Part shown: piece by piece, positions 1-17,128 of the stretch
Position numbering within the stretch: position 1 is the stretch's first letter
How the letters are laid out: each line of letters opens with the position of its first letter
Assembly: GCA_000004985.1 (NCBI GenBank)
Contig: GG738872.1
Direction: 5' to 3' (one strand)
DNA: 64,000 bases
DNA from: Naegleria gruberi
Lineage: Eukaryota
The notes under the pieces: generated by a model
What the model was told of the DNA's origin: nothing
What the model saw: only the letters and a program-made list of their open reading frames with translations
The model's database searches: none
Program-made: the position numbers and the translations under genes

Positions 1-367
1 ACCCAAACCCAAACCCAAACCCAAACCCAAACCCAAACCCAAACCCAAACCCAAACCCAAACCCAAACCCAAACCCAAACCCAAACCCAAACCCAAACCC
101 AAACCCAAACCCAAACCCAAACCCAAACCCAAACCCAAACCCAAACCCAAACCCAAACCCAAACCCAAACCCAAACCCAAACCCAAACCCAAACCCAAAC
201 CCAAACCCAAACCCAAACCCAAACCCAAACCCAAACCCAAACCCAAACCCAAACCCAAACCCAAACCCAAACCCAAACCCAAACCCAAACCCAAACCCAA
301 ACCCAAACCCAAACCCAAACCCAAACCCAAACCCAAACCCAAACCCAAACCCAAACCCAAACCCAAA
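1..367. repeat. Terminal telomeric repeat array (CCCAAA)n, about 61 perfect units; G-strand TTTGGG runs 5'->3' toward the left end. The window starts inside the array.
   Basis: Read directly: a perfect hexamer ACCCAA repeated without interruption from base 1 to about 367. Confidence 0.95.
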
Positions 368-474
368 AACCCAAACCTAAAAACCCAAACCCAAACCCAA
401 ACCTAAAAACCCAAACCTAAAAACCCAAACCTAAAAACCCAAACCTAAAAACCCAAACCTAAAAACCTAAAAAA
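368..474. repeat. Subtelomeric degenerate telomere-variant repeats (about CCCAAACCTAAAAA x5-6, also CCCAAAAA)
   Basis: Read directly: CCCAAA units alternate with CCTAAAAA variants and then end abruptly at TATTTAAG. Confidence 0.85.
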
Positions 475-1168: not shown

Positions 1169-4100
1169 NNNNNNNNNNNNNNNNNNNNNNNNNNNNNNNN
1201 NNNNNNNNNNNNNNNNNNNNNNNNNNNNNNNNNNNNNNNNNNNNNNNNNNNNNNNNNNNNNNNNNNNNNNNNNNNNNNNNNNNNNNNNNNNNNNNNNNNN
1301 NNNNNNNNNNNNNNNNNNNNNNNNNNNNNNNNNNNNNNNNNNNNNNNNNNNNNNNNNNNNNNNNNNNNNNNNNNNNNNNNNNNNNNNNNNNNNNNNNNNN
1401 NNNNNNNNNNNNNNNNNNNNNNNNNNNNNNNNNNNNNNNNNNNNNNNNNNNNNNNNNNNNNNNNNNNNNNNNNNNNNNNNNNNNNNNNNNNNNNNNNNNN
1501 NNNNNNNNNNNNNNNNNNNNNNNNNNNNNNNNNNNNNNNNNNNNNNNNNNNNNNNNNNNNNNNNNNNNNNNNNNNNNNNNNNNNNNNNNNNNNNNNNNNN
1601 NNNNNNNNNNNNNNNNNNNNNNNNNNNNNNNNNNNNNNNNNNNNNNNNNNNNNNNNNNNNNNNNNNNNNNNNNNNNNNNNNNNNNNNNNNNNNNNNNNNN
1701 NNNNNNNNNNNNNNNNNNNNNNNNNNNNNNNNNNNNNNNNNNNNNNNNNNNNNNNNNNNNNNNNNNNNNNNNNNNNNNNNNNNNNNNNNNNNNNNNNNNN
1801 NNNNNNNNNNNNNNNNNNNNNNNNNNNNNNNNNNNNNNNNNNNNNNNNNNNNNNNNNNNNNNNNNNNNNNNNNNNNNNNNNNNNNNNNNNNNNNNNNNNN
1901 NNNNNNNNNNNNNNNNNNNNNNNNNNNNNNNNNNNNNNNNNNNNNNNNNNNNNNNNNNNNNNNNNNNNNNNNNNNNNNNNNNNNNNNNNNNNNNNNNNNN
2001 NNNNNNNNNNNNNNNNNNNNNNNNNNNNNNNNNNNNNNNNNNNNNNNNNNNNNNNNNNNNNNNNNNNNNNNNNNNNNNNNNNNNNNNNNNNNNNNNNNNN
2101 NNNNNNNNNNNNNNNNNNNNNNNNNNNNNNNNNNNNNNNNNNNNNNNNNNNNNNNNNNNNNNNNNNNNNNNNNNNNNNNNNNNNNNNNNNNNNNNNNNNN
2201 NNNNNNNNNNNNNNNNNNNNNNNNNNNNNNNNNNNNNNNNNNNNNNNNNNNNNNNNNNNNNNNNNNNNNNNNNNNNNNNNNNNNNNNNNNNNNNNNNNNN
2301 NNNNNNNNNNNNNNNNNNNNNNNNNNNNNNNNNNNNNNNNNNNNNNNNNNNNNNNNNNNNNNNNNNNNNNNNNNNNNNNNNNNNNNNNNNNNNNNNNNNN
2401 NNNNNNNNNNNNNNNNNNNNNNNNNNNNNNNNNNNNNNNNNNNNNNNNNNNNNNNNNNNNNNNNNNNNNNNNNNNNNNNNNNNNNNNNNNNNNNNNNNNN
2501 NNNNNNNNNNNNNNNNNNNNNNNNNNNNNNNNNNNNNNNNNNNNNNNNNNNNNNNNNNNNNNNNNNNNNNNNNNNNNNNNNNNNNNNNNNNNNNNNNNNN
2601 NNNNNNNNNNNNNNNNNNNNNNNNNNNNNNNNNNNNNNNNNNNNNNNNNNNNNNNNNNNNNNNNNNNNNNNNNNNNNNNNNNNNNNNNNNNNNNNNNNNN
2701 NNNNNNNNNNNNNNNNNNNNNNNNNNNNNNNNNNNNNNNNNNNNNNNNNNNNNNNNNNNNNNNNNNNNNNNNNNNNNNNNNNNNNNNNNNNNNNNNNNNN
2801 NNNNNNNNNNNNNNNNNNNNNNNNNNNNNNNNNNNNNNNNNNNNNNNNNNNNNNNNNNNNNNNNNNNNNNNNNNNNNNNNNNNNNNNNNNNNNNNNNNNN
2901 NNNNNNNNNNNNNNNNNNNNNNNNNNNNNNNNNNNNNNNNNNNNNNNNNNNNNNNNNNNNNNNNNNNNNNNNNNNNNNNNNNNNNNNNNNNNNNNNNNNN
3001 NNNNNNNNNNNNNNNNNNNNNNNNNNNNNNNNNNNNNNNNNNNNNNNNNNNNNNNNNNNNNNNNNNNNNNNNNNNNNNNNNNNNNNNNNNNNNNNNNNNN
3101 NNNNNNNNNNNNNNNNNNNNNNNNNNNNNNNNNNNNNNNNNNNNNNNNNNNNNNNNNNNNNNNNNNNNNNNNNNNNNNNNNNNNNNNNNNNNNNNNNNNN
3201 NNNNNNNNNNNNNNNNNNNNNNNNNNNNNNNNNNNNNNNNNNNNNNNNNNNNNNNNNNNNNNNNNNNNNNNNNNNNNNNNNNNNNNNNNNNNNNNNNNNN
3301 NNNNNNNNNNNNNNNNNNNNNNNNNNNNNNNNNNNNNNNNNNNNNNNNNNNNNNNNNNNNNNNNNNNNNNNNNNNNNNNNNNNNNNNNNNNNNNNNNNNN
3401 NNNNNNNNNNNNNNNNNNNNNNNNNNNNNNNNNNNNNNNNNNNNNNNNNNNNNNNNNNNNNNNNNNNNNNNNNNNNNNNNNNNNNNNNNNNNNNNNNNNN
3501 NNNNNNNNNNNNNNNNNNNNNNNNNNNNNNNNNNNNNNNNNNNNNNNNNNNNNNNNNNNNNNNNNNNNNNNNNNNNNNNNNNNNNNNNNNNNNNNNNNNN
3601 NNNNNNNNNNNNNNNNNNNNNNNNNNNNNNNNNNNNNNNNNNNNNNNNNNNNNNNNNNNNNNNNNNNNNNNNNNNNNNNNNNNNNNNNNNNNNNNNNNNN
3701 NNNNNNNNNNNNNNNNNNNNNNNNNNNNNNNNNNNNNNNNNNNNNNNNNNNNNNNNNNNNNNNNNNNNNNNNNNNNNNNNNNNNNNNNNNNNNNNNNNNN
3801 NNNNNNNNNNNNNNNNNNNNNNNNNNNNNNNNNNNNNNNNNNNNNNNNNNNNNNNNNNNNNNNNNNNNNNNNNNNNNNNNNNNNNNNNNNNNNNNNNNNN
3901 NNNNNNNNNNNNNNNNNNNNNNNNNNNNNNNNNNNNNNNNNNNNNNNNNNNNNNNNNNNNNNNNNNNNNNNNNNNNNNNNNNNNNNNNNNNNNNNNNNNN
4001 NNNNNNNNNNNNNNNNNNNNNNNNNNNNNNNNNNNNNNNNNNNNNNNNNNNNNNNNNNNNNNNNNNNNNNNNNNNNNNNNNNNNNNNNNNNNNNNNNNNN

Positions 4101-5508
4101 NNNNNNNNNNNNNNNNNNNNNNNNNNNNNNNNNNNNNNNNNNNNNNNNNNNNNNNNNNNNNNNNNNNNNNNNNNNNNNNNNNNNNNNNNNNNNNNNNNNN
4201 NNNNNNNNNNNNNNNNNNNNNNNNNNNNNNNNNNNNNNNNNNNNNNNNNNNNNNNNNNNNNNNNNNNNNNNNNNNNNNNNNNNNNNNNNNNNNNNNNNNN
4301 NNNNNNNNNNNNNNNNNNNNNNNNNNNNNNNNNNNNNNNNNNNNNNNNNNNNNNNNNNNNNNNNNNNNNNNNNNNNNNNNNNNNNNNNNNNNNNNNNNNN
4401 NNNNNNNNNNNNNNNNNNNNNNNNNNNNNNNNNNNNNNNNNNNNNNNNNNNNNNNNNNNNNNNNNNNNNNNNNNNNNNNNNNNNNNNNNNNNNNNNNNNN
4501 NNNNNNNNNNNNNNNNNNNNNNNNNNNNNNNNNNNNNNNNNNNNNNNNNNNNNNNNNNNNNNNNNNNNNNNNNNNNNNNNNNNNNNNNNNNNNNNNNNNN
4601 NNNNNNNNNNNNNNNNNNNNNNNNNNNNNNNNNNNNNNNNNNNNNNNNNNNNNNNNNNNNNNNNNNNNNNNNNNNNNNNNNNNNNNNNNNNNNNNNNNNN
4701 NNNNNNNNNNNNNNNNNNNNNNNNNNNNNNNNNNNNNNNNNNNNNNNNNNNNNNNNNNNNNNNNNNNNNNNNNNNNNNNNNNNNNNNNNNNNNNNNNNNN
4801 NNNNNNNNNNNNNNNNNNNNNNNNNNNNNNNNNNNNNNNNNNNNNNNNNNNNNNNNNNNNNNNNNNNNNNNNNNNNNNNNNNNNNNNNNNNNNNNNNNNN
4901 NNNNNNNNNNNNNNNNNNNNNNNNNNNNNNNNNNNNNNNNNNNNNNNNNNNNNNNNNNNNNNNNNNNNNNNNNNNNNNNNNNNNNNNNNNNNNNNNNNNN
5001 NNNNNNNNNNNNNNNNNNNNNNNNNNNNNNNNNNNNNNNNNNNNNNNNNNNNNNNNNNNNNNNNNNNNNNNNNNNNNNNNNNNNNNNNNNNNNNNNNNNN
5101 NNNNNNNNNNNNNNNNNNNNNNNNNNNNNNNNNNNNNNNNNNNNNNNNNNNNNNNNNNNNNNNNNNNNNNNNNNNNNNNNNNNNNNNNNNNNNNNNNNNN
5201 NNNNNNNNNNNNNNNNNNNNNNNNNNNNNNNNNNNNNNNNNNNNNNNNNNNNNNNNNNNNNNNNNNNNNNNNNNNNNNNNNNNNNNNNNNNNNNNNNNNN
5301 NNNNNNNNNNNNNNNNNNNNNNNNNNNNNNNNNNNNNNNNNNNNNNNNNNNNNNNNNNNNNNNNNNNNNNNNNNNNNNNNNNNNNNNNNNNNNNNNNNNN
5401 NNNNNNNNNNNNNNNNNNNNNNNNNNNNNNNNNNNNNNNNNNNNNNNNNNNNNNNNNNNNNNNNNNNNNNNNNNNNNNNNNNNNNNNNNNNNNNNNNNNN
5501 NNNNNNNN
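1169..5508. other. Assembly gap (run of N, about 4.3 kb)
   Basis: Continuous n characters. ORF-track entries 1148..5923(-) and 1162..5517(+) are artefacts of translating N. Confidence 0.99.
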
Positions 5509-5872
5509 ACTTTCTAATTTCTCTCAAAGCAACAGTACCTGGCTTATATCTATGTGGCTTTTTAGGAGTACGTGTCTTGCTAATAGTTGATGGTTGTTTT
5601 ATAGCTTTTCTTGGTGCTTTGCCTCCAGTTGATTTTCTTGTTGTTTTTCTTCTTGCTAAAATAGCAGCTTCGGAAGTATTTTTACTTTTTCTAGTATTTC
5701 CTTCGGCTAAATCGGAAGTATTGGAAGAAGAAGGAACATCTGCAGATGAAAAATTTGCAACCACATCAGAAGCGACAGTAGATGAAGAGTTTGTGGTATC
5801 AGATACCATTGAATCATCAGTAGTTTCAGTAATAGAAGAATGAGAAGTAGTATTTCCAGTGATGAGAGTCAT
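5509..5872 (-). CDS. Histone H3 variant with an about 73-aa Ser/Thr/Asp-rich N-terminal extension. It is partial: the histone-fold region is lost in the gap.
   Basis: - Start codon: a true ATG at 5872 (MTLITGNTT...).
- After the extension, the sequence reads [21 protein letters not shown]...[17 protein letters not shown].
- This matches the canonical H3 tail and alphaN region: [18 protein letters not shown]...[19 protein letters not shown].
- The frame stays open into the N run at 5509. Confidence 0.75.
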
Positions 5873-5998
5873 TTTTTTAATTTTGAAAAGGTTATTCGGA
5901 GCATCAATAATTTGTACTCTCACAAAATAACTCTTTCAAATTTTGACCATCTAAAATAATTTCTAAAAAATATTAACCAACCGACAGAACTCTCAACA

Positions 5999-6478
5999 AT
6001 GCCAAAACGATCAGTTACTAAAATCATACCAATGTATGAAAGTATCTACGATTTACCAGTTGTCATGGTTTGTATGAAAGGAGAGAAAATCTCCGATGAA
6101 GCTTTTATTAATCATTTGTATTTTCATTCGAGTGTCTTTTATCCAACCGTTAATGATTGTACCAAAACCATCAACACAATCATGCACGAACTTGAAAATG
6201 TTATAGCAATTAATGATGATTTTATTATTGATGAAATTCCAAATCCTATGGATTTAAAAGAAAAGCTCCAACTCTCAAGAAAAGCAAATAGATTAGCTAT
6301 TTATTCATTAAAGACAATGATTATGATGGAATCAAAGATGTTTAATGCTTTGTTTCAAAAGAAACCATCTATGAATCAATTAAACAAGGCTCACAAATTC
6401 CAAAATGTAATTCATTTGGAAATTGATGAAGAAGATGTTTCCGAAAATGAAATGACCATTTGGAAAAATAAAGAATAA
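5999..6478 (+). CDS. Hypothetical 159-aa protein with no recognisable domain
   Basis: ATG-initiated ORF between the H3 variant and the recombinase ORF. No motif recognised. Could be part of the same element or spurious. Confidence 0.25.
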   Translation: MPKRSVTKIIPMYESIYDLPVVMVCMKGEKISDEAFINHLYFHSSVFYPTVNDCTKTINTIMHELENVIAINDDFIIDEIPNPMDLKEKLQLSRKANRLAIYSLKTMIMMESKMFNALFQKKPSMNQLNKAHKFQNVIHLEIDEEDVSENEMTIWKNKE

Positions 6479-6537
6479 TTTTATTAATATAAATTAATAT
6501 CCTTAATAAATATTGTTTATTAATTAATTATATAAAA

Positions 6538-9303
6538 TTAATCATCAATATAGTCATCTAAAGGGTATATATAATCATTAAAGTAACGTAAAACCATACT
6601 TTCATCAACAAAGTTATCGAAAGGTTCCCATGTTGATTGTTTGTAACCATAACCTTGCCATTTTACAAGGTAATTGAAATATTTTGGTAATAAAAGATCA
6701 GAATCAATATCTATATCTTTTTCGATTAATTGATGGTCTAAAATCTCATCAACTACAAATATATCATCTGTTTGAGTATCTTGTAAATCTGAAGAATCAG
6801 CTGAAGAATCATCTGACATATCTGCCCATCTCCTTTTGGTACCTCCTTTCTTTTCCTTCTTGGATCTAAAAGAGGAACATTTCTTATATTCTTCTGGTGT
6901 CATTTTAAATTCAGAGAAGAACTTTTGCAAATCTTCAGGATTTAATGGGATGGTTACACCATCAAACCAATGATGATCTTTCAAATAACGATTCACATGT
7001 GAAACCAAATCTTCAAAAAACACATCCCTTTCTGAACTATTCCAATAACTATTTAGTAATATCTTGAATTTTGTAATAACCCGACTTTTTACCTTCCAAT
7101 AATTTTTGTTGAATTGTTTTTTATCTTCCTCTGTAACAATTTCAAGATCTGAAAATGCCATAAGAGATCTATAGATAGATCCCATGAAATTAGTAGTTTC
7201 TGTTAATGCAACCGTCTTTCCAAAAAGAAACTTCAGTTTCGGTATGTTGTCAATTAGCCAAGTCTTGCATTTGAAATCAACTCTTGTTTGTGGAAGTGAT
7301 TTTCTTTGAGAAATTATATTCTTGTTTGTTTGAGGAATATTCATAAATCCAACGCTCTCATCAATACATTCATCTCTCATAAATAGATATTTGAAAGGTA
7401 CGCAACCATTAGGATTGGATTTTCTAGATGTTATATATGAAGATGGTGACAATTCAACATTCAAAATATTATGAAAAGTAGTTTCCAATGTATCAGATGA
7501 TGAAAATCCATAATCTTGAATAGATCCTTGAACATATTGAAATATCATCTGCCGATGATGTACAGTATCTGCAAGGTACCTCTCTGGTAGTTGGTTGAAT
7601 ATTTTGAAAGCATATCTTTCATATGATTTAATTGAGCGCTTACTGACATGTCCTAGCATGAATGAAATTGCACTCTTTGTTTGCTCTTGCACAATATGGT
7701 TTCGAATAATATCAACCAACATGTTTTCTACCACAATACCAGATCTACCAGCACGTGCACAATACATGACATTTAAAATTCTCTTGGTGATATTTCTAAT
7801 ATATTCTGATATTCCATTTGAACAACATTGAGATTTAGATTGTTTTTTGAAAAATAAAAATTCTTTCACTACATCATTCTTAAATGTGAATTTACCATCT
7901 GAAATGAATTTTTCCCAATTAGAATTAAAGTTGGCAAATATCTCAGAACGAGTGTACCACAAATAATATAATAAAATGAATGATGAACAGAGAGTATGAT
8001 TCTGCTTTCCAAATATTGACACATTCCTTGATGAAGTGGTTGTACGCTTGTCTTTCTTCACTTCCATAGAAGTGTGAATAACGAACCATTTATCATCATT
8101 AAGATAATATTCAACTTTTTGAAATTTTACATCTTCAAGTCTTATCCAAATAAGAGAATCTCCTCTCATTCCAGTAGCTCGAATAACATGCATGATGGCA
8201 ACATCAGTAAGATCTTCAACTTTTGTCAAATCAGCAGCATAGGTAACTTTGTAGACCTCAGAAAACATCATTGGAGCAACTTTGTACACTTCACACCCAT
8301 ATAATCGAATCAAGCCCATTGTTGTTTGTTGAATAGCTTCCTTAAATAGAATGACTGGACTTTCACCGAATTTAGGATGTCTTTTTATGAATTTGTTCAA
8401 TCCATACACAAAGCACCCTTTCATTGTCTTATGCGAAAAACCACTAGCTCGACTGAATATCAAAAATCTAAGGTAGGTTATCTTTTCAATAGGGAATGGT
8501 TTCGGTTGAATCTTTGACCACGCTGTTTTGCCTTTGATTTGTTCTTTCCAAAACGACACATAGACAATTCCTGAATAAGCTTCAAATTGTCTAGTATTGA
8601 TATGCTTATGAAGCTTCATTACAGTGACAACCTTGGAAATATCTTCATCCAAATCATCAACAATTGTTAAATCTAAATTTGAATCAATTTCCTCATTGAA
8701 CTCTGGTCGAATAACAGCAGATTTCTTTTTTTTTGGAGTATAGCTTGCCACAAGGAGATCTTCAACATCATAATCAATTAAGCTAGCTTCCAAATTGTCA
8801 TTGATCTCTTCTAACATCTTTTCCTTCTCTTTCGGTGATGATGATTCTACATTACGAATAAGGGATTCTTTTCGAATTTCTTCATCAGTCATTTCGGGAG
8901 GGTTATCCATCTTGTTCATTCTTTCAATCTCTTGTAAAATATCTGACACAACATCCTTTTGATGCATATAAGGCTGTATCATTGTGTCTAAATCTTTAAT
9001 TGATTGAGCAACACCAATAAAATTGTTATTATGATTTAATAATGCCATTATGTGATGAAATGACTGCATAGTAAACTCAGCATCCAAACAATAAGTAACT
9101 CCGTTATAATCAACATTGATTGATTTGGAGCCAATATACTCCTTGTTGTTTAGCAAATCATTCATTTGATAAACTCGCGATGATGAGTTCTTTGATACTA
9201 AGGCGCTCTCATCCTGTTGAGTTGGTGGGAGTTCACCGGTTGGTGAATGGTTGTTGTTGGTGCAATCACTTAAATGAGAGCTTGTAGATGATGATGGAAG
9301 CAT
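6538..9303 (-). CDS. Tyrosine-recombinase-like protein (Crypton/DIRS-type YR core) with a C-terminal chromodomain, 921 aa
   Basis: - Start codon: a true ATG at 9303.
- YR box I-like segment: HVIRATGMRGDSLIWIRLEDV.
- YR box II-like segment: YCARAGRSGIVVENMLVDIIRNH...LGHVSKRSIKSYERY (LGH ... catalytic Tyr pattern).
- C-terminal segment DIFVVDEILDHQLIEK...YFNYLVKWQGYGYKQSTWEPFDNF...LRYF fits the chromodomain consensus (YxVExIL...YLVKWKGY...TWEP.N).
- No RT/RNaseH motifs are present in this ORF. Confidence 0.65.
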   Translation of the reverse strand: MLPSSSTSSHLSDCTNNNHSPTGELPPTQQDESALVSKNSSSRVYQMNDLLNNKEYIGSKSINVDYNGVTYCLDAEFTMQSFHHIMALLNHNNNFIGVAQSIKDLDTMIQPYMHQKDVVSDILQEIERMNKMDNPPEMTDEEIRKESLIRNVESSSPKEKEKMLEEINDNLEASLIDYDVEDLLVASYTPKKKKSAVIRPEFNEEIDSNLDLTIVDDLDEDISKVVTVMKLHKHINTRQFEAYSGIVYVSFWKEQIKGKTAWSKIQPKPFPIEKITYLRFLIFSRASGFSHKTMKGCFVYGLNKFIKRHPKFGESPVILFKEAIQQTTMGLIRLYGCEVYKVAPMMFSEVYKVTYAADLTKVEDLTDVAIMHVIRATGMRGDSLIWIRLEDVKFQKVEYYLNDDKWFVIHTSMEVKKDKRTTTSSRNVSIFGKQNHTLCSSFILLYYLWYTRSEIFANFNSNWEKFISDGKFTFKNDVVKEFLFFKKQSKSQCCSNGISEYIRNITKRILNVMYCARAGRSGIVVENMLVDIIRNHIVQEQTKSAISFMLGHVSKRSIKSYERYAFKIFNQLPERYLADTVHHRQMIFQYVQGSIQDYGFSSSDTLETTFHNILNVELSPSSYITSRKSNPNGCVPFKYLFMRDECIDESVGFMNIPQTNKNIISQRKSLPQTRVDFKCKTWLIDNIPKLKFLFGKTVALTETTNFMGSIYRSLMAFSDLEIVTEEDKKQFNKNYWKVKSRVITKFKILLNSYWNSSERDVFFEDLVSHVNRYLKDHHWFDGVTIPLNPEDLQKFFSEFKMTPEEYKKCSSFRSKKEKKGGTKRRWADMSDDSSADSSDLQDTQTDDIFVVDEILDHQLIEKDIDIDSDLLLPKYFNYLVKWQGYGYKQSTWEPFDNFVDESMVLRYFNDYIYPLDDYIDD

Positions 9304-9393
9304 TTTTTTGAGAGAAAATCCCCGAAATTTCCATTAAGGCAACTTTACAAAGTGAGCCCTCTTTGAGTATTCATAAATATAGGCAATTATCGT

Positions 9394-9420
9394 GCAAGAA
9401 GGCCTTTGTGGCCTTCCTGC
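9394..9420. repeat. Imperfect palindrome / hairpin: GCAAGAAGGCC - TTTGT - GGCCTTCCTGC (10 of 11 positions pair)
   Basis: Read directly. Sits about 90-120 bp upstream of the ATG of the recombinase ORF (minus strand). Confidence 0.6.
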
Positions 9421-9705
9421 ATCAATATCTCATCCAAGTAATAATATTTATATATATAAAATTGGCAAACAGCATTCAATTTATTCAAATATTGATGTAG
9501 ACAGGTAAAAATGTCAATAATGTCATTTTTTTTACCTTACTGAAAAATGACCTGTTTTTGAAAAGCTCCCATTCAATGAGTTCAGTGAATTAGAACTGAA
9601 TTTCTGTACGATAATGTAGTAATTGAAGTCTATTACGATATCTGAAAAATTCAATATCCCAATATTTAAACAACAAATCTGGGTAATGTAATTAGCCTGC
9701 AGTCT

Positions 9706-9731
9706 CCCAAACCCAAACCCAAACCCAAACC
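9706..9731. repeat. Interstitial telomeric repeat, (CCCAAA)x4.3, same orientation as the terminal array
   Basis: Read directly: cccaaacccaaacccaaacccaaacc. It is immediately followed, in frame, by homology to the receptor cyclase-like family. Confidence 0.9.
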
Positions 9732-10238
9732 TATTGCTCGCCTATTAGAAGAACACTATGGAACTAGTTTGAATATTAAATGCAATACCAAGTATTTAAT
9801 TTCATCAGAAACTGATTACATTTCAATTTACAGATTATATACAGATACTGATGTTGATTGGTAAGTAACCTAAACGAGTTAGATATAATAATTGTTCAAA
9901 ATAGGTTGTTTGTGTTAGCAGTTCCTCAATGGAATTACATTAGGTCAATTGTTATTGCTGTAATTTGTGCTATTGTTGGTGCCACATTCATTGTCACAAC
10001 AGGTGTAGCCATTTCCATCTTCATTTCAGTCAGATTAGTGAAACCATTTTACAATTTGATTGATTTATTCGAAAGTGTCTCTCATATGGATTTGGATAAT
10101 TTAGAAATTCATGATTCCAAATTTACAGAAGTGAAACAGTTACAAACTCATTTCAAAACCATGACAGACAGAATCAAACTTTACAGAGCTTTCATACCAT
10201 CACATTTACAAGTAATTTTGTCTCATTCATTTTATTAA
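9732..10238 (+). pseudogene. Truncated relic of a receptor-type cyclase-homology family gene: only the juxtamembrane/TM/linker portion, in 2 exons (9732..9860 and 9905..10238, with a 44-nt GTAAGT...TAG intron)
   Basis: - The fragment translates as ...LEEHYGTSLNIKCNTKYLISSETDYISIYRLYTDTDVDW|LFVLAVPQWNYIRS...VKPFYNLIDLFESVSHMDLD...RIKLYRAFIPSHLQ.
- It matches the paralog at 14687..15973: LDHYSNDWTKITCNEMQVLERSGQYISIYRLCTSSKIDWILVLSVPQWNY...VKPFYNLIELFESVANMDLD...RIKLYKSFIPAHLL.
- It also matches the paralog at 53385..55883.
- The N-terminal ectodomain exons are missing, and there is no room downstream for the cyclase domain. Confidence 0.6.
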
Positions 10239-10547
10239 TGTTACTAAGCTCTCTCTCCATATTTGAATTGCCAGCTTGTAGTATTAAGCGGAGAGAATCT
10301 CCCGTTTAGAATAAGAAACGGCCTGAATCCCGTTCATCCCGTTGCCCGTCTCACCGTTTATTTGTATCAACTCATACTGCTACATATTTCATATTGCATT
10401 GATTCAAATCCAATTTCAGAACAAAAACGAATGTATTTGATAGAATTTGTAAAGAGTTCTTGTTATTTTGGGGTTAGTCTTTGATTCCTCTGTATTCAAA
10501 ATGCACCATTGAGAGAAAACGGAAGCTTGTGTAATAAAAGGTTCATT

Positions 10548-13500
10548 CTACCAATTACTGTTGTTTATTAAGNNNNNNNNNNNNNNNNNNNNNNNNNNNN
10601 NNNNNNNNNNNNNNNNNNNNNNNNNNNNNNNNNNNNNNNNNNNNNNNNNNNNNNNNNNNNNNNNNNNNNNNNNNNNNNNNNNNNNNNNNNNNNNNNNNNN
10701 NNNNNNNNNNNNNNNNNNNNNNNNNNNNNNNNNNNNNNNNNNNNNNNNNNNNNNNNNNNNNNNNNNNNNNNNNNNNNNNNNNNNNNNNNNNNNNNNNNNN
10801 NNNNNNNCATTATTTGTAATGACAGAGGTAATGACTAATGATATCAAAGTAATACAAGCAGGTAATAAAAGTGTTGGCATGTTCATCAATCTCAAAATCT
10901 CAGTCAATGCCTCAGCAACTCCACTTTGAGTAATTGCTGCCGCAATTCCAAAAGATGCTCCAACCAATGTCACTAATCTCCATTCCACACAATCAACTGC
11001 TCTCGTTGGTGTTATCAATCCAAATGCAACGACTGCACAGAATGTCACAAGTGTACATTGAACCATTGGAAATCCAGCAATGGCGCATCCAATCATTGCT
11101 AAAAAGAATGGGAAAATCCAATGTTCCCACCACCACAAATCTAAAATGATTTTAGTGAAGGGAATTCTGAATAGAAATGGTTTTTGTTTGAATTGGTTGT
11201 AATCTGGTGAGATTTCGTTAAATCTTGTAATGAGATAGAAATCCTTTGAATTGTCATGATTATTATGGTAGAAAACACTTTTACCCAAAATTAGAATAGT
11301 ATCACCACAATATACTGTTTTGCAATTGACGTGTGAATCCTTATCGTTGGTTTCTTTAGTATCAATTGAGGAGGAACCAACTTGTCTGATGGCTAATACT
11401 TTGACTTGATATCTTCTTTCGAATTCCAAATAAGTTTCTCCTAAACATGGATTTGAAGCTCCAATAACAACCTGGAAGAATTCAGGTTCATTTTCTTGAA
11501 TTTCAGATTGATTAGTTTTAGATTTTTCATTGGAGAGAGCTGCATCTCCATAATTCTTCTTGATATTATGATGTAATTGATTAGTGACTGGATTTTCAGC
11601 TTGTGGTGATGTTGTTGGTGAATCAATTAAATGGTCTTGAGATGTTGAAGAAGCCACGCAACTGCTCTGTGAAATTCTTCCTTCTTCCATTGGAGATTCA
11701 ACACTCAAAAAGGAAGTAGTGCTTTGACCTGTTGCCATTTTAGGTTCTTCTTTTTGGTTGACTGATTCAGAACTTTCAAAAGTTGATTTTTCAATTTCAG
11801 AACCATCATACACAAGTGAATGCAAACGTAAAATTAATTGAGGAGCTCCTTGGAAAACCAAAATATCAGAACTTTCCAATTTTAGATCTAAAGGAACTGG
11901 TGAAATTTTTTCAAGCCCAGCAACAGTTTCGTTTGTTGCTGGAATAATTGTATTCGAAGAAGTAGAGCTATTTGAAGAGTTTGTGGATTGCTCTGGACTT
12001 TCCTTAGGTTCTTCTACCTTAATTTCAATAGATTCTCCATTGGAAATTACATTTGGTTCGCTTGAAGTTGTTGGTTGACTTGAAGATTGTACACTGCTCA
12101 ATTCAACTTGATTGGTTGATTTCTTTTCTCTCAAAATTTCAATCAAATCCAAGTTGCCTATTCCCAACTCTGACATGGCTTTGACTTTGGTCTTTCCATT
12201 CAAAGTTTCAAATAATGTTTTACCTTTCGAATACTTTGGTTGAGAAGCCAAATATTCCATCTTGACAATGGTAACGAAAGTTTCCGAATGTTCTCTCACA
12301 ACTTCTCTTGCACGTTCCTTTTTACTTTTATGAGCAAAAGTAACCTTTGAAGCATTAAACTTTGAAGTCACTCCTTCATTAGGAACAATCCACAATGTAT
12401 AAGTGCAACAATAAATAATTGTAATGAAACATAAAATGGCGCCAACATAAACAAACTCATAAAAGGATAAAGGAGTGTAACCATATTGAGTATAGATACC
12501 ATTTGCAACAATACTTGCTGAAGTTCCAATATATGTCAACAATCCACCTCCATTTGTTGCGAATAAAAGTGACATGAGAAATTTGGTATGTGAAAGTTTG
12601 TGTGTCCTTGCCCATTCCATAATGATAGGAATTCCTGTGGCCACAACTGGAGTATTCGATACAAATGCACTAAAAATGGTAAAAACAAAACAAATTCTTA
12701 AAGTTGGTGGTATGAGTGAAATAAAATTGAGAAATTTGTTTTTGGAATTTTTGAATTTCAATGGGGAACCAAATAAAAGTCTGGCAAATTTCAAAACTAG
12801 GGTATTTTCACTTAATGGTTTGACGATTGGGAAGAGGAGAGCAACGATGAGAGTACCAGTGTTGGAAAAACCACTTAAGGCATCTGTAACACTGACAATA
12901 CCTGCCAGATTAAAAATGACAAGTGTCATAACCACAATAAAGTAAGGTCTCCAAAGAGAAACAACCAGACAGACTAGCATTAGGATGACCATGCATAGTA
13001 CGAACCATAATTTCCATGAATTCCATGAAAATGCAACTACAGGTGACGTGGATCCACAAATATTATTGATGGATGAGCTTGTTAACACTGTATCTATGCT
13101 CACAGATTGATTCAGCTGTTGAATGGTAGTAAAGTTGTAGTTTAGATTCTTAGAAGGAACTTGTGCTTGTAAATCGTTGAAAGCATTCACCAATTCTTGA
13201 CTAAACATTCCACTTTCAATCTTGTTTCTAATATCAGCAAGGTCGAGTTTGACTAGAAACCATTGAATTGCATAGGAATTTGTAAACAACTCTGGAATAT
13301 CCAAGTATTTGGTAGAATTCATGAATGCATTCTTACTTGTCGTTCCATTTATATGAAAAACCATCTTTTCATATGTCAAATCCATTCCACTTTTTGTTTG
13401 AATGACAGAAATTGGATATTCTTGAAGGAGAGAAGTTCTGGAAGGAAGAAAGAGTGAATTTTGATATTTTGTGGAAAGTAAGTTATTATGGATGATTCTA

Positions 13501-13964
13501 AAATAGTAAAAACTTAGTGTTTCGTTCGTTTCGTGCAAACTTTCGACATGTTCATCAAATAGAAACTTCCAAGAAATTGTTCCTTGTCCGTGTTCATAAC
13601 TCAATGAAACATAACTAATGGTAGTGCTTGCATTTATGGTAGAACTCTTATAATTCGTATCGTCATTCGAATAGTAAACACTCTCGGATATATTTTTGGT
13701 AAACTCGGTGGAAAATTGATAAATTTGACCATTTACAAATGCAGATGAAGTAGAAATACAATTATCCAATCGAATAGGATGATTTAGCAAGTTTGCAAGT
13801 GATAAAATGATGAAAATGCTTGAAATGCAAGCAAATACGAAACTGTGGAGTTTCATCTTTTTTTCTTTCGAATTGTTAGATGAGAAGGAAGAGATTCGTC
13901 CTGTTGAAATGCAAAAGGGCACAACTGTGGCCATGCTGGACTCGTTTTCTATACTATTTGGCAT
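10548..13964 (-). CDS. Anion permease of the CitMHS / ArsB-NhaD (SLC13-like) superfamily. Two permease halves are separated by a cytoplasmic loop with two TrkA-C (RCK_C) domains, and there is an about 330-aa N-terminal ectodomain after a signal anchor.
   Basis: - Start codon: a true ATG at 13964.
- First multi-TM block: CMVILMLVCLV...GIPIIMEWARTHKLSHTKF...ATNGGGLLTYIGTSASIV.
- TrkA-C-like segment: FFQVVIGASNPCLGETYLEFERRYQVKVLAIRQ...CGDTILILGKS.
- Second TM block: WWEHWIFPFFLAMIGCAIAG...VTLVGASFGIAAAITQSGVAEAL.
- The C-terminus is interrupted by the N gap, so the 3' end is uncertain. Confidence 0.6.
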   Translation of the reverse strand: MPNSIENESSMATVVPFCISTGRISSFSSNNSKEKKMKLHSFVFACISSIFIILSLANLLNHPIRLDNCISTSSAFVNGQIYQFSTEFTKNISESVYYSNDDTNYKSSTINASTTISYVSLSYEHGQGTISWKFLFDEHVESLHETNETLSFYYFRIIHNNLLSTKYQNSLFLPSRTSLLQEYPISVIQTKSGMDLTYEKMVFHINGTTSKNAFMNSTKYLDIPELFTNSYAIQWFLVKLDLADIRNKIESGMFSQELVNAFNDLQAQVPSKNLNYNFTTIQQLNQSVSIDTVLTSSSINNICGSTSPVVAFSWNSWKLWFVLCMVILMLVCLVVSLWRPYFIVVMTLVIFNLAGIVSVTDALSGFSNTGTLIVALLFPIVKPLSENTLVLKFARLLFGSPLKFKNSKNKFLNFISLIPPTLRICFVFTIFSAFVSNTPVVATGIPIIMEWARTHKLSHTKFLMSLLFATNGGGLLTYIGTSASIVANGIYTQYGYTPLSFYEFVYVGAILCFITIIYCCTYTLWIVPNEGVTSKFNASKVTFAHKSKKERAREVVREHSETFVTIVKMEYLASQPKYSKGKTLFETLNGKTKVKAMSELGIGNLDLIEILREKKSTNQVELSSVQSSSQPTTSSEPNVISNGESIEIKVEEPKESPEQSTNSSNSSTSSNTIIPATNETVAGLEKISPVPLDLKLESSDILVFQGAPQLILRLHSLVYDGSEIEKSTFESSESVNQKEEPKMATGQSTTSFLSVESPMEEGRISQSSCVASSTSQDHLIDSPTTSPQAENPVTNQLHHNIKKNYGDAALSNEKSKTNQSEIQENEPEFFQVVIGASNPCLGETYLEFERRYQVKVLAIRQVGSSSIDTKETNDKDSHVNCKTVYCGDTILILGKSVFYHNNHDNSKDFYLITRFNEISPDYNQFKQKPFLFRIPFTKIILDLWWWEHWIFPFFLAMIGCAIAGFPMVQCTLVTFCAVVAFGLITPTRAVDCVEWRLVTLVGASFGIAAAITQSGVAEALTEILRLMNMPTLLLPACITLISLVITSVITNNXXXXXXXXXXXXXXXXXXXXXXXXXXXXXXXXXXXXXXXXXXXXXXXXXXXXXXXXXXXXXXXXXXXXXXXXXXXXXXXLINNSNW
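10573..10807. other. Assembly gap (235 N)
   Basis: Run of n. It interrupts the 3' end of the transporter gene. Confidence 0.99.
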
Positions 13965-14686: not shown

Positions 14687-17128
14687 TCAACACATTCGAA
14701 ATTTAACACAAAAAGTTATTGGAAAGGTCAAAAACAGAAAAGGACTTACCTCATCGTCGTTCACTTTCAAAGAAGATCCCAATTCATAGATATTTGTTAG
14801 CACGCCAGTATTTGGAGTCTTGTATTCGTCAGTTTTTCCATTGAGCGAGTTTAAATTAGTTTCGTCTAGTAATTCTTTGGAATCTACATATCTGATTTGG
14901 AACAATTGTTCACATTTTTCCTTAATCTTCTCACTTACTACAATACTAACATTCAGTTGAATTGCAATTTGAGTCAATTGATCCAAATTTTGTTTGGCGC
15001 TCGAAATTATTGTAAAGTTTTTCAATTCGTTCGTTCCAATATTTCCACAATAGGAAGATTGTGATAAAACTGCAATTTTAAATGACATTAAATCCAATAA
15101 TTGTGAATTCTTCTTGAAACTGTTTAATAAGGTTGAGGCAGCGACAACTCCTTTTTCTTCATGATTCGTCTGATTATTCGAAGAGTTAAACGAAATGGTG
15201 ATTGATTCATTTTCAAAGTTTCCAACGTTTCCTGTCAAACTTCTACTCACACTATTAATCTGTTCAAAAATATCTGACATTAGCTCAATAGTTTCGTTTG
15301 GATTCATATTTTGCAACCATTCAGTAAATCCATTAAAATGAATCTGGACGAAAGTTACCTTCTTCTGTTCCATATACAAGGAAAACTTGCTTCTATCATT
15401 CTTATATACTTTCCTTGAGGATCTTGCTTTATGAGAAATTCCTTTACTGGAATTAGAACTTCCCACTGATTGAGTTTCCTGACTTGACATGTTGTGCGAA
15501 GATCCTCCGTAGACTTTAGTTCTGGAATTCTTTCGGAAAGATTCGTCTACTTCACTGTCTGATTCTTGGATACCATCTACATTTTCAATTTCTGAAAGTA
15601 AGTGAGCTGGAATAAAACTCTTGTAAAGTTTGATTCGGTTGACCATGGAAATGAAATGTCCTTGTAATTGTTTCACTTCTGAGAATGAACTTGGAATAAT
15701 GTGAAGTTGATCCAAATCCATATTAGCAACACTTTCGAATAACTCTATCAAATTATAAAACGGCTTGACAACTTTTAAGGAAACAACAACTCCCAAGACT
15801 AAACCAACCGAAATGATGAGAACACTACCAATCAATGAGCAGATAATTGCAAAAATTGTCGATCCTAAATAATTCCATTGAGGGACACTCAACACTAATA
15901 TCCAATCAATTTTTGAGCTAGTACACAATCTATATATGGAAATGTATTGTCCACTACGTTCGAGAACTTGCATTTCATTGCAAGTTATTTTAGTCCAATC
16001 ATTCGAATAATGATCAAGAATAGCTTGAGAAATTGCGTTGATTTTGGTATCTGAAACATCGGTTGGTGTTTTTCTATCTAATGATCCATCTGATTTCCAA
16101 TCTGAAATTGTAACTTCCTCTCTGTCAACTATTTCCCATAAACTTTACAATAAAAATTTATGTAACTTACCTGCAATCAAATAAGCAGTTTCAGTTTCCA
16201 CAATAAATCCTAAAGATCCAGTAATGGATGCAATTCTTTCTTTCAAAAAGTCTGAAATCGATGACACTGTCAAATCATTTGCTTGATAATAGTGAAAATT
16301 GTGTCCGTTAGGAAGAGGAAGTTTCTTATTTACGACACAATTCATGGAAGTGATGAATGTGTATTGAGGCATTGAAATGTCAGCATAACTCAATGTAAAA
16401 ACTTGTTGACCTGGATTAGCATCACAGACCTCAACGAGATAGCTCACATCGAATGGCTTGTTGGTTTCGTCTGGATTAGAATTTCTAACACACTGTTCGT
16501 GATTGGTAATGTTGTCGCAATAATAGATTAATTGAGCTGTTGATGTGATATTAAAAGTGGCCAAATAATCTCCCCACTCAATTGATCCAAAGCATGTTTT
16601 ATCTGTACCTCCCACATATGAGGAAATTGTAATTCCCTTCAAATGTTTTTGAGATGACTAATGGCAATTTGAAGGTATTTCATTAATTTTCATGAATTTT
16701 TCATATTTTGAATATGAGAATAGGAATCAATAAACTTTGCTTACCTTGTAGCCTGCAAACATAATCCTCTCCAAATAATCGAAATTTCCATACGAATAAT
16801 CATCAGTTGCCAATTGTTGTTTAATGGCCTCATTCAATACATTAACTTCTTTGAGTGTTTGCTCTGCATATTTGACAATGGTTGAAAACTCTTCGTCTCT
16901 CACTGTTGATGATAAACTGACAACTGTTGGAGAAAAACTTGCCAACCAAATGGCAGATAGGATCAAAACACTGAGGAAGAGTAAACCAGATACCATGACA
17001 ATCATACAAAATTTGATGGAAGTTCCCTTAGTTGAGCCTCCTGTGTAGGAACTTGTTTCTTGATTCTTATCCATTATGGCTTGTTTATCCTCTTGTGAGG
17101 TTGGTGTTACCTTGTTCTTTAATTTCAT
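14687..17128 (-). CDS. Receptor-type cyclase-homology (pseudo-cyclase) protein, about 760 aa, 3 exons. Exon 1 is 16745..17128. Exon 2 is 16171..16636. Exon 3 is 14690..16128, or 14690..16089 with an alternative in-frame acceptor.
   Basis: - Start codon: ATG at 17128.
- Intron 1 donor: AAG|GTAAGC. Intron 1 acceptor: tttgaag|GGAATT.
- Intron 2 donor: GCAG|GTAAGT. Intron 2 acceptor: gggaaatag|TTGAC.
- Architecture: N-terminal cytosolic stretch, signal-anchor TM, ectodomain, second TM (ILVLSVPQWNY...), HAMP-like linker, then a class III nucleotidyl-cyclase-like domain.
- Cyclase-like motifs: VTFVQIHFNGFTEW ... GNVGNFENESITISF ... FKIAVLSQSSYCGNIGTNELKNFTIISSAKQNL.
- The canonical metal-binding Asp residues are replaced: D->H/Q in the first motif, and IGD->FEN in the second.
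- Paralogous to the gene at 53385..55883. Confidence 0.6.

Follow-up and report, generated by a model that had tools for sequence, protein, structure and literature searches.

A chromodomain-bearing tyrosine recombinase at a chromosome end of Naegleria gruberi and its relatives at heterolobosean chromosome ends

The window analysed here is a stretch of 64,000 nucleotides from Naegleria gruberi (GenBank assembly GCA_000004985.1, contig GG738872.1). It represents a chromosome end, with a (CCCAAA)n telomere tract at its start, and close to this tract lies a gene for a tyrosine recombinase (YR) with a chromodomain at its C-terminus (Table 1). The gene is one open reading frame (ORF) whose product is 100% identical to an NCBI/UniRef entry, 'predicted protein [Naegleria gruberi]', placed on a 413-kb contig. 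From the chromosome interior toward the end, the order is chromosome-specific DNA, a short interstitial telomere-repeat tract, the recombinase gene, an ORF of 159 amino acids (aa), a histone H3 variant and the telomere. The original prediction, made from the sequence alone, described one ORF joining a YR core to a C-terminal chromodomain near a telomere and an H3 variant gene. Both parts of this description stand, as a complete two-domain core and a canonical chromodomain were found, and the telomere tract lies 6.1 kb off with the H3-variant gene in between. No further copies of the recombinase were detected in the window by tblastn with the protein. The terminal block is not distinct in base composition (G+C approximately 29-34%, compared with approximately 31-39% in the rest of the window).

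Table 1. Features of the N. gruberi window, and distances of the family loci from chromosome ends
Feature	Position	Strand	Description
Terminal telomere tract	1..470	+	Perfect (CCCAAA)n to ~360, then variant units such as CCCAAACCTAAAAA
N run	1169-5508		Hides 4.3 kb of the terminal block and most of the H3-variant gene
H3-variant gene, 5' part	5510..5872	-	Remainder under the N run 1169-5508
159-aa ORF	5999..6478	+	Divergent from the H3-variant gene; no Pfam match
Chromodomain-bearing tyrosine recombinase gene	6538..9303	-	Uninterrupted ORF of 921 codons; stop codon included
Chromodomain, aa 849-902	6598..6759	-	F849 at 6757-6759, W882 at 6658-6660, Y885 at 6649-6651
Middle region, aa 611-845, then acidic/Ser-rich linker	6769..7473	-	Conservation with P0002 only
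Recombinase core, aa 195-610	7474..8721	-	Core-binding helical domain ~aa 218-335; catalytic domain ~aa 347-575
H552 to Y561	7621..7650	-	His/Trp-III, then the presumed nucleophile Y561
R517-A-G-R520, box II	7744..7755	-	Family motif RS[LMC]RSG; Arg at the canonical His of HxxR
K417-D418-K419	8047..8055	-	Candidate beta-hairpin catalytic Lys; family motif KDK/KEK; K417 and K419 invariant
R380, Arg-I	8164..8166	-	Motif GLRGDS; invariant in the 12-sequence alignment; aligns with Cre R173 (profile-to-PDB)
N-terminal region, aa 1-194	8722..9303	-	Low-complexity except a conserved hairpin-plus-helix, ~aa 61-89 (secondary structure of the full-length AlphaFold2 model, low confidence)
Interstitial telomere-repeat tract, (CCCAAA)x4.3	9706..9732	+	Oriented like the terminal tract; upstream of the recombinase gene, 0.4 kb from its ATG
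N run	10573-10807		Splits a CitMHS-type transporter gene at 10548-13964 (-)
N. gruberi window locus			6.1 kb from telomere tract
N. lovaniensis L002			5.6 kb from TTTGGG tract at contig end
N. fowleri L011, L012			First 520 codons left; telomere tract begins 83 bp beyond
W. magna L003			118 bp from contig end without repeats
W. magna L004			6.5 kb from telomere repeats
W. magna L005			3.4 kb from contig end 99% identical to L006 pre-telomere sequence
W. magna L006			6.9 kb to first repeats; 7.5 kb to main tract
W. magna L014			1.3 kb from telomere repeats
W. magna L015			7.9 kb from telomere repeats
W. magna L016			1.5 kb from telomere repeats

The C-terminal segment quoted in the original prediction (FVVDEILDHQLIEK...YLVKWQGYGYKQSTWEPFDNF) starts at residue 849, and it is matched over residues 849-902 (6598-6759) by the Pfam profile Chromo (PF00385) with 39.7 bits (E 4.7e-10), which exceeds the curated gathering cut-off of 25.1 bits. 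All matches of a phmmer search against the PDB were chromodomains (CBX6/8/4/2/7, HP1, CHD1, SUV39H1 and CDY), all of them weak, and the strongest reached E ~1e-4. As chromodomains of the Polycomb-class CBX proteins came closest in sequence, the label 'HP1-type' initially attached to the domain is not specifically supported and appears too narrow. The aromatic cage has fared better: the three positions named for it are indeed aromatic (F849, W882 and Y885) and fall on the cage columns (HP1 Y24/W45/Y48) in an alignment with hand-entered reference sequences of HP1, Polycomb, CBX7, HP1-alpha and Swi6. For the W and Y/W columns, the HMMER alignment to CBX6 gives the same assignment. In addition, the TWEP motif is kept, and an acidic insertion of 12 residues separates strands 1 and 2. 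Judged by these matches the chromodomain is real, and it is predicted to bind methyl-lysine. N. gruberi possesses heterochromatin with histone H3 trimethylated at lysine 9 and lysine 27 (H3K9me3 and H3K27me3), coincident with 5-methylcytosine on young transposable elements and silenced genes (PMC12344493), so that a ligand for the domain plausibly exists.

The fold of the recombinase was assessed on an AlphaFold model of aa 195-610 built from a 12-sequence core alignment of relatives (A3), which reached a mean predicted local distance difference test score (pLDDT) of 77.5 and a predicted template modelling score (pTM) of 0.67. Foldseek against the PDB placed Cre recombinase at the top (E 4.2e-9, probability 1.0, approximately 370-390 aligned columns across both domains), followed by Tre, XerH, lambda integrase and Tn1549 integrase. 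The model thus contains the two-domain fold of the YR superfamily, a helical core-binding domain and an integrase catalytic domain, and structure prediction bears out the assignment of the core. At the level of sequence alone, a family profile searched against the PDB retrieved Tre (E 0.006) and Cre (E ~0.1), with XerA also within E 0.006-0.1, and the Pfam profile Phage_integrase (PF00589) matched four of 22 relatives at E <= 0.01 (best 1e-5).

The catalytic residues were placed from sequence alignment and secondary structure, not by side-chain superposition. R520 and Y561 are, like R380, invariant across the 12 aligned core sequences, and the lysine candidates K417/K419 are located between strands 2 and 3 of the catalytic-domain sheet. 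The H552 column holds Trp in most relatives, as in Cre, and His or Trp is nearly invariant there. At the canonical His of box II, Arg is found in 10 of the 12 aligned cores and also in one member outside the alignment; the distant member P0036 has HSMR at these columns, i.e., the canonical His, and the XerA 'HvLR' was aligned with the family 'RSlR'. The R-K-H-R-H-Y signature expected at the outset is therefore alignable at R380, K417/419, R520, H552 and Y561 and differs at His-II, giving R-K-R-R-H-Y. Type IB topoisomerases have Lys at the equivalent of His-II, and thus Arg at this position need not abolish the chemistry. Even among paralogs sharing no more than 18-27% identity with the N. gruberi protein, R, K, R and Y never vary and R(H) and H/W hardly do, which argues for selection on catalysis. 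In short, the N. gruberi ORF probably encodes an active Cre-like tyrosine recombinase.

When 1.84 billion representative proteins were searched exhaustively with HMMER, using the aligned core of the N. gruberi protein and P0002 as the query, 37 relatives emerged. All named members are heterolobosean (N. gruberi, N. lovaniensis, N. fowleri and Willaertia magna), the others coming from unassigned metagenome contigs. At least nine family genes, all diverged subtelomeric paralogs, are present in W. magna, and paralogs in the family are only 20-30% identical. A word-indexed search with the full N. gruberi protein returned itself and P0002 and no more, the same type of search with the 12-sequence core alignment returned P0003 and P0040 only, and a metagenome pattern scan with alignment A1 gave 302 pattern sites, of which none was confirmed. 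No description of the family was found in the literature on Naegleria tyrosine recombinases and subtelomeres, on Crypton chromodomains or on telomere-repeat subtelomeric transposons. This is a previously undescribed, amoeba-specific (Naegleria/Willaertia) recombinase family.

P0002, a protein of 1057 aa encoded on a 7.9-kb metagenome contig (L001), shares 32% identity with the N. gruberi protein across 85% of the length and has its parts in the same order: N-terminal region, core (approximately 44% identical), middle region, acidic linker and chromo-like C-terminus. The middle region, which gave no match in the Pfam scan and is modelled with low confidence by AlphaFold2, matches L001 with E 1.5e-10. 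Motifs resembling the N-terminal element at aa 61-89 were recognized by eye, unscored, in P0002, P0006, P0007 and an upstream exon of the N. lovaniensis gene. The chromo-like segment of P0002 keeps a Y/W/Y cage and has SFIP in place of TWEP; it gave no match to Pfam Chromo at E 0.1. Since no chromodomain was found in the other 20 scanned family members, the domain is a late addition within the family, confined to the N. gruberi/P0002 subgroup. A possible remnant in N. lovaniensis (VTVEWGGFG) was not significant (E 0.54). On L001, a gene for a TET/JBP-type dioxygenase (5989-7083, minus strand; Pfam Tet_JBP, E 1e-7) is located 1.1 kb downstream of P0002.

Mobility can be demonstrated for the distant relative P0036. 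Identical copies of this 584-aa protein are encoded by a 4.6-kb unit found at no fewer than three genomic places in one metagenome (L007-L010, approximately 7300-11900), and the units are 98-99.7% identical. Every unit terminates at a tRNA-Lys gene (anticodon CTT or TTT), and at its opposite (left) end 12 nt, GTCGGTAGAGCG, match the tRNA D-arm. The unit looks like a tRNA-targeting recombinase transposon in a eukaryote.

Genomic context was available for 11 loci in four species (N. gruberi, N. lovaniensis, N. fowleri and W. magna), and in these the family is strictly associated with chromosome ends. All 11 genes lie 0.1-8.2 kb from a telomere tract or a contig end, and 10 of them are transcribed toward the end. 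For a random gene on contigs of 80-720 kb, the probability of lying this near an end is a few percent or less per locus; counting four independent lineages only, the joint probability is below 1e-6 (arithmetic from contig sizes). Apart from the recombinase, nothing is shared between the genera, with no orthologous flanking genes and no synteny. In N. fowleri the gene (10001-11563, with the telomere from 11646 in both L011 and L012) is cut off after codon 520 at two chromosome ends. Because the telomere tract starts 83 bp past this codon, the catalytic half is deleted, and the recombinase is therefore dispensable in this species. The 474- and 549-aa 'genes' annotated downstream in L011 and L012 are ORFs running through telomere repeats. 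Among the W. magna ends, L004, L005 and L006 share an order of a 576/533-aa gene, a 1150/976-aa gene, the recombinase, a 457/453-aa gene and the telomere, and none of the partner genes has a Pfam match. A three-gene block is found upstream of the recombinase in L005 and downstream in L004, and in L006 the recombinase is a copy of that in L004, either chimeric or truncated. Other elements were observed in these regions as well: N. lovaniensis L002 has a pogo-like DDE_1 transposase between the recombinase and the telomere (12023-13285, minus strand), and N. fowleri L011 has a 1.9-kb reverse transcriptase (RT)/RNase H insertion between the interstitial tract and the recombinase (7722-9554, minus strand), which is absent from the other N. 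fowleri end.

Telomere repeats also occur on the proximal side of the recombinase. The perfect tract of 26-27 nt at 9706-9732 is the only one in the window besides the terminal tract, and none would be expected by chance. Proximal interstitial tracts in telomere orientation are present at six of the 11 loci, namely those of N. gruberi, N. fowleri (both) and W. magna L004, L006 and L016, measuring 14-30 nt at the five loci outside N. gruberi; going from the tract toward the chromosome end, the recombinase is the first gene met in Naegleria. Sequence comparisons place block boundaries at some of these tracts. The homology between N. fowleri L011 and L012 (99.4%) begins exactly at GGGTTTGGGTTTGGG, the sequence to the left of which is unrelated, and that between W. 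magna L004 and L006 (99.5%) begins exactly at the interstitial tract. We propose that the tract at 9706-9732 is likewise the proximal boundary of the terminal block. The novelty lies in the family: a heterolobosean group of YRs associated strictly with chromosome ends, housed in blocks bounded by telomere repeats and including one branch that acquired a chromodomain.

Several features of the repeats themselves may be added. The inner 110 bases of the N. gruberi telomere tract (361-470) consist of variant units, CCCAAACCTAAAAA. In N. lovaniensis L002 (17590-17700), too, the telomere tract is bordered on its inner side by variant repeats, TTTATTGGG. The interstitial tract in N. gruberi ends with CCCAAACCTA, as do the variant repeats. 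Just proximal to the tract, at 9858-10238 (plus strand), there is a truncated fragment of a receptor-type cyclase-like gene comprising a transmembrane segment and the adjoining region. It is an inverted paralog (approximately 75% DNA identity) of an intact gene at 14687-15973 (minus strand) and is truncated on both sides, which is consistent with an old chromosome break at the interstitial tract.

The H3-variant gene of N. gruberi encodes an N-terminal extension of 76 aa followed by an H3-like tail and alpha-N helix (Pfam Histone, E 9e-4 on the visible part), and the R-K-S-T motif is kept at the K9-equivalent position (TRKS motif in the tail). In W. magna, a very diverged H3 variant of 159 aa (L003, 2607-3086, minus strand) is located immediately downstream of the family member P0011. 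In both species the H3 variant is divergently paired with a small ORF, and with respect to the recombinase the pair faces opposite ways in the two. It is unlikely to be a coincidence that an H3-like gene stands beside the recombinase in two genera. Homology between the 159-aa ORF of N. gruberi and the W. magna ORF of L003 was not accepted, as the two share a 12-residue motif only (pairwise E 0.015).

A precedent exists for the fusion, which had been put forward as unusual. In Kirc, the DUF3435 tyrosine recombinase (Starship 'captain') of the Podospora element Enterprise, the recombinase occupies the N-terminus and is followed by a zinc finger and, at the C-terminus, by a chromodomain that is conserved in an alignment of 279 Kirc homologs (PMC8092012). 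The architecture is therefore not categorically new. As in Kirc and Starship captains, a YR core is followed by a C-terminal chromodomain, and as in Starships the recombinase is the first gene of the unit, transcribed inward and followed by unrelated cargo genes. In contrast to the captains, DUF3435 was matched by none of 22 family members at E <= 0.01, nor by the N. gruberi protein at E <= 1; the zinc-finger region of Kirc is lacking, the host is a heterolobosean and not a Pezizomycotina fungus, and the block is bounded by telomere repeats instead of a short target-site duplication. Given the missing DUF3435, the different eukaryotic supergroup and the restriction of the chromodomain to one subgroup, the resemblance to Kirc is best read as convergent, and the chromodomain was probably acquired independently.

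Among other known systems, the coding content of the block resembles that of the Cryptons, a group of DNA transposons (Goodwin, Butler and Poulter 2003). The only recognizable enzyme in the visible block is a YR, without RT, terminal repeats are often lacking, lineage-specific C-terminal domains are added to the recombinase, and NDC10_II gave weak matches in two of 22 family members. Unlike in Cryptons, no multi-copy dispersed insertions were observed here and the location is strictly at chromosome ends. The survey of Kojima and Jurka (2011), according to which Ndc10/Cbf2 derived from CryptonF elements, includes no Cryptons from Naegleria (PMC3212892). Ndc10/Cbf2 and the DUF3504 proteins (WOC/ZMYM and QRICH1) are similar in placing a YR fold at specialized chromosome regions, the centromere and the telomere (PMC3212892). 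Hallmarks of DIRS, Ngaro and PAT elements were not found, with no RT/RNase H in the neighbouring ORFs, no RT domain by Pfam in the visible N. gruberi block and no significant terminal repeats at 5500-12000, the N run at 1169-5508 being unread. Cre/Xer enzymes are the best structural match over both domains, and Trp at His/Trp-III is shared with Cre by most of the family; they differ in sequence (approximately 13-14% identity), in the residue at His-II and in the long N- and C-terminal extensions and eukaryotic nuclear context of the family. Chromovirus (Ty3/gypsy) integrases also carry a C-terminal chromodomain on the DNA-joining enzyme of a mobile element, thought to steer it to heterochromatin, yet theirs is a DDE integrase in a long terminal repeat retroelement, none of which is present here. 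The yeast Y' element offers an analogy in layout: the block is flanked by the terminal tract on one side and by a short, equally oriented interstitial tract on the other, is common to several chromosome ends (no proximal tract being seen at five of 11 loci) and encodes a DNA enzyme whose ORF points toward the end. The Y' element, however, encodes a helicase and spreads by homologous recombination, whereas the block described here encodes a recombinase.

We consider it quite possible, if somewhat short of probable, that the recombinase is the signature gene of a subtelomeric element bounded by telomere repeats, tethered through the chromodomain and cutting and rejoining DNA at telomere-repeat junctions. 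The enzyme would cut and rejoin DNA at or near such junctions, and the block would thereby integrate into, or be exchanged between, chromosome ends. The chromodomain would tether the enzyme to subtelomeric chromatin marked with H3K9me3/H3K27me3 and so confine its activity to chromosome ends. Recombinase-driven movement of the telomere-bounded block is, with no more than moderate confidence, the best-supported mechanism. Mobility is suggested by the retained catalytic residues, the dispensability in N. fowleri, the lack of synteny between the genera and the mobility of the distant relative P0036; near-identical copies are seen as truncated genes at two N. fowleri ends, and dispersed identical copies for P0036 only.

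A number of observations weigh against this interpretation. The recombinase is single-copy among the N. gruberi proteins, so that mobility in this species is conjectural, and a search for terminal repeats or target-site duplications flanking the gene (5500-12000) gave nothing significant, only short direct and inverted repeats at chance level. No proximal tract was found in the upstream sequence, up to 10 kb, at N. lovaniensis L002 and W. magna L003, L005, L014 and L015. The L004 tract truncates the gene that is 1150 aa long in L006. Since the block thus starts inside a gene that is full-length at the other end, this start fits break healing followed by homologous or break-induced copying better than site-specific integration. 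The W. magna ends are also mosaic, with 28% identity between recombinases and 88% between the distal 457-aa genes, a pattern typical of ordinary subtelomere dynamics and as such weighing against recombinase-driven movement. All four observations (single copy, missing termini, the L004 start and mosaic divergence) are explicable by break healing and by homologous or break-induced copying through telomere repeats, with no recombinase involved. As for the protein, the Phage_integrase match that had been anticipated covers only aa 357-407 with 17.1 bits (E 0.005), under the gathering cut-off of 27.1 bits, the active site is non-canonical with Arg in place of His-II, and in the full-length AlphaFold2 model the recombinase core alone is resolved, the N-terminal, middle and chromodomain regions all having pLDDT <50. 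The N. fowleri copies are without R517, R520, H552 and Y561, i.e., the gene has decayed in one species, and the N run of 4.3 kb conceals part of the N. gruberi block.

The serious rival is a domesticated host factor serving subtelomere or telomere biology and copied passively with subtelomeric duplications, with no mobile element involved; its role could be to promote or resolve recombination between ends, or DNA and chromatin binding alone. We regard this as rather unlikely. It would agree with the single copy in N. gruberi, with the conserved multigene order and mosaic divergence of the W. magna ends and with the H3 variant adjoining the gene in two genera. Block starts at interstitial tracts can arise by homologous recombination between telomere repeats without any recombinase, as in yeast Y'. 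Domesticated YR-fold proteins do act at centromeres (Ndc10) and telomeres (WOC) (PMC3212892). Known Crypton-derived domesticates have, however, lost their catalytic residues (PMC3212892), which are kept here across deep paralogs. A host factor is also difficult to reconcile with the truncated, and hence dispensable, N. fowleri gene, with paralogs only 20-30% identical and without orthologous flanks between the genera, and with the mobility of the distant relative.

A bolder form of the element hypothesis, which we find doubtful, is that the block represents an undescribed class of cargo-carrying eukaryotic mobile element, similar to Cryptons and Starships, for which the telomere repeat is the attachment site of its YR. 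A circular intermediate with a telomere-repeat core would integrate into the terminal tract of a chromosome, leaving a short interstitial tract proximally and a tract extendable by telomerase distally. In N. gruberi the enzyme would in addition be tethered by the chromodomain to methylated H3, and the H3 variant would be cargo.

The location at chromosome ends could also reflect an ordinary Crypton-type transposon without telomere specificity, retained in the 'safe harbour' of the subtelomere as insertions elsewhere are purged from gene-dense genomes, with the chromodomain merely biasing integration to heterochromatin as in chromoviruses. Chromodomains reportedly direct chromovirus integration to heterochromatin (Gao et al. 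2008), the safe-harbour idea for subtelomeres exists in the literature, and the pogo-like DDE_1 gene and the RT/RNase H insertion do sit in the same subtelomeres. Such a transposon is nevertheless improbable, since a distance of at most 8.2 kb from the end at all 11 loci and the same orientation at 10 of them are tighter than passive accumulation predicts, the members without a chromodomain are just as terminal as the N. gruberi/P0002 subgroup that has one, and neither element termini nor target-site duplications could be defined.

Two further explanations are highly improbable. An inactive relic or mis-annotated ORF, with a dead core, a chance chromodomain match and no function, might account for the subthreshold Phage_integrase match, the residue at His-II, the 12-aa insertion and low-confidence model of the chromodomain and the truncated N. 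fowleri copies, but not for 921 uninterrupted codons, for the architecture, catalytic and cage residues conserved with P0002 at 32% identity, for a Chromo match above the curated cut-off, or for Arg at His-II in 10 of 12 aligned cores, which is no private lesion. An integrated virus or virophage-like remnant with its own integrase and histone gene is brought to mind by the integrated virophages and giant-virus fragments in protist subtelomeres, by the tyrosine recombinases of some virophages and by the H3-like gene that neighbours the recombinase in two genera (histone genes occur in some giant viruses), but capsid, polymerase and packaging genes are absent from all loci examined, the G+C content of the block is not distinct, heterolobosean genomes and unassigned metagenome contigs are the only sources of the family, and a specific viral origin was rejected as the fold search against BFVD gave only generic phage integrases, no better than Cre.

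If the interpretation of the recombinase as the signature gene of a chromodomain-tethered subtelomeric element is true, a chromatin reader would have been joined to a DNA-joining enzyme at least three separate times, in the DDE integrases of chromoviruses, in Starship captains and in a discoban protist, and such repeated acquisition would suggest that guiding integration into silent chromatin is a strategy of general use. For the N. gruberi enzyme, the neighbouring H3 variant may be a second ligand of the chromodomain. Naegleria is culturable, H3K9me3/H3K27me3 maps exist for N. gruberi and the truncated N. fowleri copies are natural controls. A recombinase family residing at chromosome ends, with a conserved active site and telomere-repeat junctions, offers a system for studying how subtelomeres are built and exchanged, and it raises the question of whether a site-specific recombinase can target telomere repeats.

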